NCBI GenBank assembly: GCA_040903985.1
Contig: JBBDUI010000002.1
Location: 104,204 to 168,203 of the forward strand
From: Candidatus Saccharimonadales bacterium
GTDB taxonomy: Bacteria > Patescibacteriota > Saccharimonadia > QS-5-54-17
Reading direction: 5' to 3'
DNA: 64,000 bases
Shown: positions 1-7,533 of the stretch, in pieces
Position numbering within the stretch: the first letter of the stretch is position 1
Layout of the letters: every line of letters begins with the position of its first letter
Position numbers and translations under genes: made by a program
The notes under the pieces: model-generated
Told to the model about the DNA's origin: nothing
Seen by the model: only the letters and a program-made list of their open reading frames with translations
Databases searched by the model: none

Positions 1-865
1 GCTAACTGGAATTGAGGTCACGCCCGACATAGCCCGACAGCCGGTTACGGCCGTCATAATCGAGAACTCACCCAACGCACGACCCCAGTCGGCCCTAAAT
101 GCTGCCGACATCGTCTTTGAGGCCGTAACTGAAGGGGGTATCACTCGTTTCTTAGCCTTCTTCCAGCAGCAAAACCCCGGTAAGATCGGGCCAGTCCGTA
201 GTCTACGTCCGCCCTTCCTCGATTGGATCATGGGTTTCGATGCACCGTTTGCCCATGTCGGAGGTAGCGCTCAGGCATTACAGCTAGCTGCGCAGCGTGG
301 CGCTAAGAGTCTGAATCAATTCAGTAACGGCGACGCCTACTACCGTAGTAACGATCGCGTAGCCCCCCACAATATGTACACTTCTATCAGTAGTTTACGC
401 GCCCTACAGAAAAGCCGTGGTTACAAGCCGAGCTCGTTTAAGAAGATTCCCCGCAGCGATGATGCTCCGGCTGCCGAGCCGGTCGCCACCCGCATTACGG
501 TCGATTTCTCTAGTTCTCTCTATCAGGCCCAGTTTCACTACCAGGCTGAAAATAACAGTTATAGCCGTTACCTAGCCGGTAGCCCGCATATCGACCGCGA
601 GACCGGTGAGGCAATAGAGACTAAGAATGTAATCATTATCAAGATGCCTTCGCGCCAGAACGGCCAATATGTAGAAATGGACACCATCGGTAGCGGTGAC
701 GCAGTACTATTTAAAGATGGTACCTCTCGTAATATTCGCTGGCGCCAGAGCAGCTATAACGACCGCATCGAACTGCTGGATGGAGAGGGCGCCGAGATTA
801 AGCTTAACCGCGGCAAAAGCTGGTTCAGTATACTACCCAGCGGTAGAACGTTAACGGTCGAATGA
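1..865 (+). CDS. DUF3048 (YerB-like) family protein, 5' end outside the window
   Basis: The frame is open from position 2 with no stop before the listed ORF 230..865. The upstream translation (VTAVIIENSPNARPQSALNAADIVFEAVTEGGITRF) resembles the conserved DUF3048 N-domain. Confidence 0.55.
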   Translation, partial: LTGIEVTPDIARQPVTAVIIENSPNARPQSALNAADIVFEAVTEGGITRFLAFFQQQNPGKIGPVRSLRPPFLDWIMGFDAPFAHVGGSAQALQLAAQRGAKSLNQFSNGDAYYRSNDRVAPHNMYTSISSLRALQKSRGYKPSSFKKIPRSDDAPAAEPVATRITVDFSSSLYQAQFHYQAENNSYSRYLAGSPHIDRETGEAIETKNVIIIKMPSRQNGQYVEMDTIGSGDAVLFKDGTSRNIRWRQSSYNDRIELLDGEGAEIKLNRGKSWFSILPSGRTLTVE

Positions 866-2346
866 GCTGGCATCGACGACTCCTCGCTCTTATCCTACTG
901 ACCCATCTCCTACCGCTGTTACTGCTCTGGATAATCCTAGAGATGACAGAACTCACTAATCTAAGTCTAGTGCTGCTACTGCCGCTGCTCACTGCATTTC
1001 TATTCAGCTGGGCACTCTACTGCAGTCTGAGCCGACCGCTCAGCCAGCTTTCAGCCGATATCGAGAAGGTAGCAGCTGGCAATCTCTCGACTCGAGCTGG
1101 AACCCTGCCCGGAGTTTTCGGTCAGATCAGCACAGCTCTCGACACCATTACCAGTAAGCTTCAGGAGTTCGTCTCCCGTACTCAGGCTGAGACCGAAGTA
1201 ATGGCCGCTGAGGCTAACAGGTTGCGTATGATACTTAACTCGATTAGCGACGGAGTGTTCGCCCTGGATAGTGACAAACGCATTATTCTTTTCAATAAGG
1301 CGGCTAGTAACATCACTGGACTTAATATCAAGGCCGTAGCCGGTCAACCGGTTAATACTGTCCTGCCGCTCATTCGCCAGAAGCAGCTCATCTTAAGCGA
1401 GTGGTTCGACCAGTGTCAGGACACCGATATGCAGCAAACCTCCTGGGAGAACGTCACCTTCACTAACCGAGAAGGGGAGGAGCTGACTCTCGACATCGAC
1501 GCCCTCTACATCGGTGCCGATCCAAACGGTGTACGCCTACTAGTAACATTTCATAATCGTACTGAAGAACGCCGGGTGGAGGATATGAAGGTCGACTTCG
1601 TCGCGCTCGCCGCTCACGAACTGCGCACCCCGGTGACCATCATTAAAGGTTACTTAGAAATATTGGAAGAAGAGGTTGGGCCACAGCTAGCACCCGAACA
1701 CCGCGAGTTCATTCGCAAGCTCGAGGTTTCGGCTACCCAGCTATCTGGCTCGATTAACAACATCCTGCATGTCTCTCGCATCGAACACGGCGAGCTAAAC
1801 ATGAACCGAGAGACACATGAATGGAATGAAATCGTCCGCACTGTCGCCTCCGAGCTGAACCAAAAAGCCATCGCCCAAGGAAAGTCTCTGCTCCTTAATC
1901 CCCACCCGAAGGAGCTCTACGTTTCCGTCGATCAAGTCAGCATCACCGAAGTCATCACTAACCTGATCGATAACGCCATCAAATACAGCAAACGTGGACA
2001 AAAGATTACAGTTAATGTCAATCGTAGCAAAACCGGTATCACGACCGAAATAGTCGATCAAGGTGTCGGTATTCCTGCTAACGCAGTCGGTAAACTTTTC
2101 ACCAAGTTCTACCGCTCTCACCGTACGCGTACCAGCCACCGTGGCACCGGGCTCGGGCTCTACATGTCTAAATCGATCGTCGAGGCACACGGGGGGCGCA
2201 TCTGGGTCGAGTCAAAGGAAGGCGAGGGCTCTACCTTCGGCTTCGAGCTCCCGGAAGTTGCCAAAGACTCCGCTGGTAGTGATAATGGTAATATCACCCG
2301 TAGCGTTCACGGCTGGATTAAGAACCACTCATTATATAGAGGATAA
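862..2346 (+). CDS. Sensor histidine kinase (N-terminal TM helices, HAMP-like, PAS, HisKA, HATPase_c)
   Basis: H-box AHELRTPVTIIKGYLEIL. G-boxes GTGLGLYMSKSIVEAHGGRIWVESKEGEGSTF. N-terminal hydrophobic segments. ATGA overlap with the upstream gene. Confidence 0.85.
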   Translation: MSWHRRLLALILLTHLLPLLLLWIILEMTELTNLSLVLLLPLLTAFLFSWALYCSLSRPLSQLSADIEKVAAGNLSTRAGTLPGVFGQISTALDTITSKLQEFVSRTQAETEVMAAEANRLRMILNSISDGVFALDSDKRIILFNKAASNITGLNIKAVAGQPVNTVLPLIRQKQLILSEWFDQCQDTDMQQTSWENVTFTNREGEELTLDIDALYIGADPNGVRLLVTFHNRTEERRVEDMKVDFVALAAHELRTPVTIIKGYLEILEEEVGPQLAPEHREFIRKLEVSATQLSGSINNILHVSRIEHGELNMNRETHEWNEIVRTVASELNQKAIAQGKSLLLNPHPKELYVSVDQVSITEVITNLIDNAIKYSKRGQKITVNVNRSKTGITTEIVDQGVGIPANAVGKLFTKFYRSHRTRTSHRGTGLGLYMSKSIVEAHGGRIWVESKEGEGSTFGFELPEVAKDSAGSDNGNITRSVHGWIKNHSLYRG

Positions 2347-6373: not shown

Positions 6374-6423
6374 CCCACACCGATCTCCATCACATCTTAC
6401 CCAGTGTCCGAGATTAGTAAACT

Positions 6424-6459
6424 GTACTTTTTTACTTACGATCGTGAGTAAAAAAGTAC
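6424..6459. terminator. Bidirectional terminator hairpin between convergent genes
   Basis: gtacttttttactta-cgatcgtga-gtaaaaaagtac. A/T-rich flanked stem. Confidence 0.55.
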
Positions 6460-6713
6460 AAAATTATTATGGCTTAAGATAGGAGCAAAGATGAAGTTTG
6501 TAACAATTTTTTTGACGATCGCAAACAAATTCATTACAAATTATTACTGAGAGAATGATTAATATTTCATAAAGAAAAACCACGGTAGGCTTTCGGTGAC
6601 GAGATCGCAGAGCGATCAAGTACTGAAAGTTACCGTGGTCGGTGGGCCGGGTTATCGTACCGGCTGGTGTCTGTCGATAGATCGACATCCGTACGGTGGA
6701 GAGTAGCTATGTC

Positions 6714-6869
6714 CTAGCGTTTGCCAGAACCGCAGCAGTCTTGGCATTTGCCAGAACGATCACAGGTAGTGCAGCCCCAGCTCGACAAGCCTCCGGCACC
6801 TCTCCTGTCGCCCTGACCACGGCAGTCCGGGCACTTCTTAGTGCCGTTGCAGCCAGTACAGCGGGCCAT
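6714..6869 (-). CDS. Small Cys-rich protein (51 aa) with DnaJ-type CxxCxGxG zinc-finger-like repeats
   Basis: Translated by hand as MARCTGCNGTKKCPDCRGQGDRRGAGGLSSWGCTTCDRSGKCQDCCGSGKR. AAGGAG Shine-Dalgarno 6 nt upstream of the ATG. Not in the ORF track because it is under 60 aa. 26 nt downstream of the preceding same-strand gene. Confidence 0.5.
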   Translation of the reverse strand: MARCTGCNGTKKCPDCRGQGDRRGAGGLSSWGCTTCDRSGKCQDCCGSGKR

Positions 6870-6895
6870 CGTGCGCTCCTTGGCTCTACGACCGC

Positions 6896-7246
6896 TCAGT
6901 GCCTAGCCGGGAATCCGATGGAGCACGAGCTCACCTGGATATAACCCCTGCGTGAACGATAGTCGAACAAGCCATTCATGTGCAGAGGAAATACTCCCTC
7001 CACGCTCTTGTCCTCGATGCGGCCGACGAACTCAAAGGCGTTAACCCTAAGGTCGTCACCATCCCAATGCCTAATGCTGTCACCATCCCAATGCCTAAGG
7101 CCAGTGATGACTGCCTCGCGATGGCAGTCGGCGACGCAGAACACCACTGTATGCGGGTTCTGCTCATCAAAGGCATACTTCAGCGCATCACACAGTCCGT
7201 CTCGAGAAGGTCCGTCCGTGAGGGGAAGTCTTTCGATGGAAGCCAT
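6896..7246 (-). CDS. Hypothetical protein (116 aa) containing a 24-bp tandem duplication
   Basis: The internal ATG at 7246 with AAGGAG SD is preferred over the track start at 7348, which would overlap the tRNA. Tandem 24-bp repeat at 7055..7102 encodes RHWDGD twice. Confidence 0.5.
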   Translation of the reverse strand: MASIERLPLTDGPSRDGLCDALKYAFDEQNPHTVVFCVADCHREAVITGLRHWDGDSIRHWDGDDLRVNAFEFVGRIEDKSVEGVFPLHMNGLFDYRSRRGYIQVSSCSIGFPARH

Positions 7247-7323
7247 ACGGCTCTCCTTGTGAAGGTGCTTCAATGATATCCCGCCGCTGGCGGGACCACC
7301 TCTCCATACGGACAGGAATTGAG

Positions 7324-7465
7324 TGGTCCTGGTGGGACTCGAACCCACGTCCTCTGCACAGATGCAGGTGAGTAGCTTGCGCTTGATAGGCTACGGCCGG
7401 CGCCGACCCTAACCTATCCTCACCAATTCAATGCACAGCGCTCTACCTGGCTGAGCTACAGAACC
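7324..7465 (-). tRNA. tRNA gene interrupted by a ~68-nt structured insertion in the anticodon loop; anticodon unresolved; CCA not encoded
   Basis: 5' half GGTTCTG-TA-GCTC-AGCCAGGTA-GAGC-G-CTGTG. 3' half TGCAG-AGGAC-GTGGG-TTCGAGT-CCCAC-CAGGACC-A. These give a 7-bp acceptor stem, canonical D and T arms, and an anticodon stem CTGTG/TGCAG. The intervening 75 nt contains nested helices GGTGAG/CTCACC and GATAGG/CCTATC. Confidence 0.55.
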
Positions 7466-7533
7466 AATATTTTATATTAAAATAATATCGTCAGGTAATG
7501 TCAATAGGTGTTATCTGTTACAATAGAGCGTAT

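Follow-up and report, generated by a model that had tools for sequence, protein, structure and literature searches.

What kind of gene, if any, is a 51-codon open reading frame that gene callers pass over, and with what might its product work? The question is raised by a 64,000-nucleotide (nt) stretch of the Candidatus Saccharimonadales contig JBBDUI010000002.1 (the window, in whose coordinates all positions are given), in which a preliminary description pointed to an unannotated frame of 51 amino acids (aa) with nine cysteines, here called open reading frame 2 (ORF2), behind a hypothetical gene (ORF1) and close to an interrupted tRNA. Comparison with related loci, labelled L002-L214, indicates that ORF2 is a genuine protein-coding gene under purifying selection, and its sequence family places the product in the DnaJ-type CxxCxGxG zinc-finger superfamily, where it is a compact and divergent protein that belongs to no curated family. 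For its function, the favored explanation, to which we would give an even chance, is that this compact, basic protein forms a DnaJ-type two-zinc finger that acts by zinc-dependent binding to a partner, the ORF1 protein being the most likely one. The frame itself is as follows.

6714..6869 (stop included), minus strand: ORF2, 51 aa with nine Cys, ATG to TAG, from the sequence and its orthologues; translation MARCTGCNGTKKCPDCRGQGDRRGAGGLSSWGCTTCDRSGKCQDCCGSGKR

The frame, its nine cysteines, and an AAGGAG ribosome-binding site are found in the sequence as described, reading from 6869 to 6714. Orthologues come from three relatives, the soda-lake Candidatus Saccharibacteria metagenome-assembled genome L002 (SLRF01000047), L207 (CAZSYB01), and L213, in each of which the gene cassette that includes ORF2 likewise sits between der and rluB. 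ORF2 is exactly 51 codons long in each of the four genomes, with zero indels, identical start and stop positions, and a ribosome-binding site upstream; the start codon is ATG in three of them and TTG in L002. Eight cysteines are invariant across the four orthologues, the ninth, which in the window protein forms part of a CC pair, not being conserved in L002, L207, or L213. The window protein is 56-66% identical in amino acid sequence to the other three (67% in the separate comparison with L002), comparable with the 62% of rluB, and conservation is uniform along the whole peptide.

The pattern of substitution is that expected of a coding sequence. Between the window and L002, the proportions of nonsynonymous and synonymous differences (pN and pS) are 0.305 and 0.663, with a ratio of the corresponding rates (dN/dS) of ~0.24; dN for this pair is 0.39 for ORF2, close to the 0.36 of rluB, and higher, at 0.71, for ORF1. 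The third codon position varies most in six of six pairwise comparisons (e.g. 4, 3, and 14 by codon position for L002 versus L207), and synonymous sites are near saturation among the four genomes. The antisense frame is likewise open, yet it is much less conserved. Together, the third-position excess, the fixed length, and the weaker antisense conservation show that purifying selection acts on ORF2 at the protein level, and the frame conservation that had been set beforehand as the decisive test of the preliminary description is found in all four genomes.

That ORF2 might be a chance open frame in the G+C-rich 3' untranslated RNA of ORF1 is a reading that fits both the openness of the antisense frame and the failure of gene finders to call ORF2. 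It is, however, already contradicted by the retention of length, start, stop, and eight cysteines in four genomes despite the near-saturated synonymous sites, by the coding-type substitutions, and by the conserved ribosome-binding site. In addition, a degenerate DNA pattern specifying the eight cysteines and four glycines at the ORF2 spacing has a single match in the window and no match in 100 shuffles (0 expected by chance), so that the cysteine scaffold is not a chance product; hardly any likelihood is left to this explanation. The frame is indeed unannotated: it is uncalled on its source Logan contig, and a collection of 15 billion proteins, which holds only one of 10 exact family sequences, does not contain it. 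In L207 (GCA_964610455.1), a spurious 83-aa frame is annotated at 843-1094 (plus strand), overlapping the real 51-aa ORF2 (821-976).

The protein itself carries four CxxC(xGxG) motifs as two tandem pairs, and its cysteine pairs, C4/C7, C13/C16, C33/C36, and C42/C45, are conserved in the four orthologues; in the window protein, motifs 1 and 3 depart from the consensus at their glycine positions (CxxCxGxK and CxxCxRSG being among its four). It is basic, with 10 K/R against 4 D/E in the window and a net charge of +6 to +9 across the orthologues, and cysteine makes up 18% of its residues. So high a cysteine content, together with the ninth cysteine of the window protein and the thiol-oxidoreductase activity reported for DnaJ cysteine-rich domains (PMC5818400), would suit a thiol-rich, metallothionein-like metal buffer or a redox-active DnaJ-type oxidoreductase acting without a specific partner. 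The strict CxxCxGxG motifs with their conserved glycines point instead to structural zinc knuckles rather than to metallothionein clusters, the ninth cysteine is peculiar to the window among the four genomes, and no metal-homeostasis genes lie nearby. Such a role, put forward in the preliminary description as a metal-binding peptide, is improbable.

Relatives of ORF2 extend well beyond the four orthologues. A scan of metagenomes with the scaffold pattern C-x2-C-x5-C-x2-C-x-G-x-G-x12-C-x2-C-x5-C-x2-C-x-G-x-G found more than 120 loci with the ORF2 spacing, a lower bound; an earlier metagenome scan with tool-generated peptide patterns had returned no ORF2 relative. Some of the relatives stand alone, as proteins with an MxxC start and a length of exactly 51 aa (L093, L133, L143, and L165), a few others being slightly longer, and the L133 protein aligns with the window ORF2 at 45% identity with zero gaps (BLASTP, E = 3e-11). 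The contigs of these stand-alone relatives are short, their gene neighborhoods differ, and no conserved neighbors were found. The module also occurs as a domain, often C-terminal, of proteins of 150-650 aa. Many of these large proteins (among L085-L204; e.g. L103, L115, L140, L150, and L171) have a signal-peptide-like N terminus and the module near the C terminus, often with a Ser-rich linker and an extra CxxC...HYH...C motif after it, and several of their contigs are labelled human gut metagenome. On viral contigs the module occurs in two versions of 55 aa and in one of 76 aa that has a signal peptide. The latter, with four CxxCxGxG motifs (L082-L084, 4905-5135, plus strand), lies in an A+T-rich stretch with flanks that are, by eye, G+C-richer, and adjoins another small signal-peptide gene, the two together looking like a moron.

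The presence of module relatives behind signal peptides, in the phage contig L082 as in the large metagenomic proteins, is in keeping with a further suggestion of the preliminary description, that of a precursor peptide; the small, cysteine-rich ORF2 would then give rise to a ribosomal peptide, for example a bacteriocin, that is modified or secreted. ORF2 itself, however, has no signal peptide and no division into leader and core, conservation spanning all 51 aa. A precursor role is also unlikely because no modifying enzymes are found nearby, none of the called neighbors (rluB, der, the tRNA-like gene, and ORF1) having a Pfam domain indicative of peptide modification, transport, or immunity, and because large proteins carry the identical module as an ordinary domain; its probability is very small.

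The assignment to the DnaJ-type superfamily comes from the family rather than from the single protein. A profile of eleven small ORF2-family members (A5) matches the cysteine-rich domain of Escherichia coli DnaJ (1EXK) at E = 3.3e-6, with query residues 3-50 on chain residues 13-75 and all four motifs aligned, DnaJ having insertions between knuckles 1 and 2 and between knuckles 3 and 4. In this respect the DnaJ-type zinc-finger likeness first proposed for the frame holds. Weaker matches of the same profile are to Anti-TRAP, the zinc finger of the Q antiterminator, and UvrA. Individual relatives give below-threshold Pfam matches to DnaJ_CXXCXGXG, BSD2_CRD, and Anti-TRAP, borderline ones to DUF7895, and weak matches to the NCBIfam RtpA and DnaJ models.

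Several results weigh against this assignment. The members of profile A5 were chosen by a pattern in which the Cys and Gly columns are fixed from the outset, part of its signal thus arising by construction, and a profile made from the window and L002 sequences only (A2) found no DnaJ match in the PDB. The window ORF2 alone has no significant match in Pfam, NCBIfam, PHROGs, or PADLOC; nor did a word-indexed protein search or a tblastn search of phages and plasmids yield a match to it. With respect to PF00684, for which the gathering threshold is 32.7 bits, the window ORF2 gives no match at E<=10 and its relatives score 10.8-24.8 bits. A single-sequence, metal-free AF2 model of ORF2 is poor (pLDDT 52). 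Finally, knuckles 1 and 2, as well as 3 and 4, are separated by one residue in ORF2 versus ~6-10 in DnaJ. In the DnaJ cysteine-rich domain two zinc ions are bound, motif 1 pairing with motif 4 and motif 2 with motif 3; the one-residue spacers of ORF2 may favor pairing of knuckles 1+2 and 3+4 over that arrangement.

Comparison with known zinc-finger systems illustrates which features of ORF2 are familiar and which are not. With the DnaJ cysteine-rich domain (PF00684, 1EXK) it shares four CxxCxGxG-type knuckles and eight cysteines, and two zinc ions would be expected. A DnaJ co-chaperone, however, also has a J domain with HPD, a G/F region, and C-terminal client-binding domains, and ORF2 has none of these, being the finger only; lacking both J domain and client-binding domain, it is ruled out as a DnaJ co-chaperone. 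Zinc binding and the holding of client proteins are known for J-less proteins with four CXXCXGXG motifs, the client of BSD2/ZnJ2 being the nascent RbcL chain (PMC5818400). Like ORF2, BSD2/ZnJ2 (BSD2_CRD, PF25436) are small stand-alone proteins made up essentially of the four-motif domain; unlike it, they are eukaryotic and plastid, longer, and have the wider, DnaJ-like spacing, and BSD2_CRD is matched weakly by one ORF2 relative only (E = 0.012).

Similar in size is Anti-TRAP (RtpA) of Bacillus (3LCZ, 2BX9; NF058604/PF15777), a protein of 53 aa with DnaJ-type CxxCxGxG knuckles that acts purely through protein binding. Anti-TRAP has two knuckles, binds one zinc, and oligomerizes. Its four cysteines and single zinc site differ from the eight cysteines and four knuckles of ORF2, and no sign of TRAP or of trp regulation appears among the identified genes around ORF2. 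The RtpA model matches eight of 11 ORF2-family members weakly (best E = 5e-5), the window ORF2 not being one of them. In DUF7895 (PF25433), a Pfam family without known function, model positions 3-24 are matched twice by the tandem CxxCxGxGxCxxCxGxG unit of ORF2 relatives; against a cut-off of 27 bits, the window ORF2 (10.2) and the L002 orthologue (18) fall below and the distant relative L097 (29.2) above. Brz-type archaeal proteins resemble ORF2 in being very small, basic zinc fingers, a likeness by description and not by sequence match; they differ in having CPxCG knuckles, usually one zinc, and an archaeal origin.

By these comparisons, the eight conserved cysteines of ORF2 would form a two-zinc finger from four CxxCxGxG-like knuckles in two tandem pairs, and the protein would work, by analogy with BSD2/ZnJ2 and Anti-TRAP, through direct zinc-dependent binding to a partner. 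Among the roles first suggested for the frame, that of a zinc-finger binding protein or chaperone-like factor is the one that fits best. The most likely partner is encoded immediately upstream.

6896..7246, minus strand: ORF1, 116 aa, with AAGGAG upstream; member of a family of about 100-130 aa with the motif GPSRExLxDxLKYAxD ... HEDGSGxSF ... R.G
6870..6895, minus strand: 26-nt intergenic spacer; contains AAGGAG, the ribosome-binding site of ORF2, 6 nt upstream of its ATG; read from the sequence
7046-7069 and 7070-7093, minus strand: in-frame 24-bp tandem duplication in ORF1, 21/24 bases identical
7476..7504, minus strand: promoter-like TTGACA-N17-TTTAAT upstream of the tRNA-like gene; putative, read from the sequence

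Read from the sequence, the minus-strand order is promoter-like element, tRNA-like gene, 77-nt leader, ORF1, 26-nt spacer, ORF2, and 143-nt structured tail; the 26-nt spacing and a ribosome-binding site before the 116-aa ORF1 are as first reported. ORF1 is singled out as partner because ORF2, with its own ribosome-binding site, lies 26 nt behind it in what appears to be a single promoter-to-terminator unit, from which the two would be co-transcribed. ORF2 might stabilize, hold, or inhibit the ORF1 protein. A TTGACA-N17-(C/T)(A/T)TAAT element is also present in L002 and L207. A consensus promoter scan made no call at 7476..7504, the second hexamer having no A at position 2.

ORF1 belongs to a family for which a HMMER search followed by a profile search gave 65 matches, proteins of ~100-130 aa with no Pfam domain, all named "hypothetical protein", that share the motif GPSRExLFDALKYAxD ... 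HEDGSGxSF ... R.G. ORF1 has no significant match in Pfam, NCBIfam, PHROGs, or PADLOC, and the exact protein turned up on Logan contigs of run SRR27977661 and nowhere else, the word-indexed protein search having matched it to itself alone. The protein P0004 (501 aa, repetitive and lipoprotein-like) gives five matches to the ORF1 N-terminal helix region (NPSKDNIANALKKYFKD), a resemblance that is probably due to chance or low complexity. The in-frame 24-bp duplication noted at the outset is present in ORF1, although TRF at its thresholds does not report it; its product, LRHWDGDS/IRHWDGDD, doubles the most conserved loop motif of the family, (L/I)RHWDGD. Variation in copy number, for which a check had been proposed, was not seen: among 58 ORF1-family sequences (alignment A6), the insertion derived from the duplication occurs only in that of the window. 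In an AF2 model of ORF1 the duplication falls in coil between strands 41-52 and 70-77, and it is on this account probably tolerated.

The partnership of ORF1 with ORF2 sits less easily with their distribution. Among ten independent ORF1 loci, ORF2 is present only in the four related ones (window, L002, L207, and L213), and six ORF1 cassettes do without it (L205, L206, L208, L209/L210, L211/L212, and L214). Conversely, neither an ORF1 homologue nor a tRNA was found at the ~120 ORF2-like loci among the matches listed. The pair is therefore conserved within one clade only, and with the link confined in this way, the adjacency may reflect shared ancestry rather than shared function; the link between the two genes is weak. 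In L205 and L214 a conserved 3' element directly follows ORF1, so that ORF2 and its ribosome-binding site (~180 nt) have been either inserted or deleted cleanly at the junction of the two.

The cassette is also rich in conserved RNA hairpins, which bear on the main rival to the ORF1-partner model, namely that ORF2 is a nucleic-acid-binding zinc finger acting on the RNA of its own cassette (the leader and start hairpins or the tRNA-like arm) and controlling processing or translation of the ORF1 message. The relevant features are these.

7247..7323, minus strand: structured ORF1 5' leader, four hairpins; single-sequence fold z = -2.8, covariation in nine leaders
7299..7316, minus strand: leader hairpin P0, CCUGUCC-GUAU-GGAGAGG, with P1 and P2 next
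7324..7465, minus strand: tRNA-like gene, Rfam tRNA 48 bits, with a 79-nt insert in the anticodon arm
6571..6713, minus strand: conserved structured 3' untranslated region, from alignment and consensus fold of six loci

The leader, which is not in Rfam, is present at every ORF1-family gene examined, including L002 and L205-L214. Its first hairpin has the family consensus CCnnnYY-G(U/G)AU-RGnnnGG, followed by UGG, and this P0 motif has 12 matches in 1.63 Mb of collected sequence, all of them 48-75 nt ahead of an ORF1-family gene. The stems of P1 and P2 differ between loci yet remain complementary by sequence comparison; the consensus fold recovers P1 in part and misses P2, both being present in the single-sequence fold of the window. 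The last hairpin of the leader contains the ribosome-binding site and the AUG (GGAGAGCC-GUAU-GGCUUCC), and the consensus fold supports this start hairpin, in which the ribosome-binding site is held and a G(U/G)AU loop includes the AUG. The 3' strand of P0 resembles a decoy ribosome-binding site, which suggests that ORF1 translation may be controlled through alternative pairing of its ribosome-binding site. An upstream open reading frame in the leader (M-E-R/G-W) was rejected, as its frame relative to ORF1 varies, that of L208 stops after three codons, and L214 has AUA with a compensatory change.

At the other end of the cassette, the 3' region contains a CUCUCCACC-GUAC-GGA hairpin, which across loci takes the form CC-GUAC/GUAA-GG, and a second hairpin (6667..6646) with the conserved loop GGUACGAUAACC; the invariant loop of the 3' hairpin across loci is GGUACGAnAAcC. 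A terminator follows, consisting of a long stem (6638..6580) and a U-tract (6579..6571). The element stands after the last open reading frame of the cassette with or without ORF2 (L002, L205, L207, L213, L214, and the window). Long-range pairing, or terminal inverted repeats, between TCCGTATGGA of the leader and CCGTACGGA of the 3' element was considered and discarded, the two being near-palindromes that form local hairpins; read by eye, the differences in L205 and L214 do not compensate one another, which leaves such pairing unsupported.

The interrupted tRNA reported next to these genes is present (7465..7324). Its acceptor, D, and T arms are intact, scoring 46-52 bits against RF00005 in three genomes, and the acceptor stem shows compensatory changes between genomes; the anticodon arm is replaced by an irregular hairpin of 53-79 nt with a conserved GGCGCC apex. 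Genes of the same architecture are found at L002 3839-3964 (minus strand) and L207 245-370 (plus strand). Default ARAGORN missed the tRNA-like gene, and its intron mode called Ser(tga) in one genome and Gly(tcc) in another, placing no consistent anticodon. Group I introns in the tRNAs of Patescibacteria measure 184-894 bp (PMC13011429); such an intron was rejected here, inserts of 53-79 nt being too short and no Rfam intron or ribozyme being matched at E<=1. The tRNAs in the loci compared for the origin of the gene are almost only tRNA-Glu. From its position between the promoter and the ORF1 leader, the tRNA-like RNA is probably co-transcribed with the cassette and cut out.

How far do these RNA features favor an RNA ligand for ORF2? 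Its strongly basic character in all four orthologues and the richness of the cassette in conserved hairpins, one of which sequesters a ribosome-binding site and AUG, are what an RNA-binding protein of this kind would lead one to expect. ORF2 and the tRNA-like gene are both present in the window, L002, and L207 and both absent in L205 and L214 (in L213 the region upstream is cut off). Small zinc-finger regulators are also known, for example Brz of Halobacterium, which is very small and is encoded next to the gene it regulates (PMC2253796), and the finger of the Q antiterminator is among the weak profile matches. However, ORF1 cassettes that lack ORF2 have the leader hairpins just as all the others do, and these hairpins therefore do not need ORF2; the co-occurrence with the tRNA-like gene lies within one clade and could be explained by inheritance alone; and no RNA-binding family was matched by ORF2. 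RNA binding is accordingly possible but rather unlikely, and below it plausibility falls in the order metal buffering or redox activity, precursor peptide, and chance frame.

A more elaborate version would join the two elements that distinguish this clade. Here, ORF2 and the tRNA-like RNA would constitute a functional module added to an older ORF1 cassette, in which the finger recognizes the GGCGCC-tipped tRNA-like arm or the G(U/G)AU start-codon-type hairpins, and its binding to RNA couples RNA processing to ORF1 translation. To this version we attach a low probability, and zinc-dependent binding of ORF2 to the ORF1 protein is preferred.

The genes flanking the cassette in the window encode a histidine kinase, a response regulator, RluB, Der, and Pth. 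Der is 72% identical to that of L002 and 44-59% identical to those of ~80 further Saccharibacteria. Across ~80 Saccharibacteria (L002-L081), the gap between rluB and der ranges from 19 to 3168 nt and has the look of an insertion hot spot for genes. In the genome CAYQCN01 this gap is empty (L004), and the ORF1 cassette adjoins pyruvate kinase instead (L205). A perfect 17-bp A+T-rich hairpin after rluB, at 6419-6464, is a terminator; a mir-126 match at the same position on both strands is false, being this terminator hairpin.

For the study of small proteins, the protein type represented by ORF2 is a compact variant of a well known zinc-binding module, and a whole family of such 51-aa double zinc-finger proteins is systematically overlooked by gene callers. 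Saccharibacteria have very small genomes, in which a cassette built from a tRNA-like RNA, a leader, ORF1, a zinc finger, and a structured 3' end is an unusual construction. If the module of finger and tRNA-like RNA were real, these reduced genomes would contain a protein-RNA regulatory unit of a kind not described before; and if ORF2 is a dedicated partner of ORF1 or of the cassette RNAs, it would provide a handle on an otherwise opaque, lineage-specific system.

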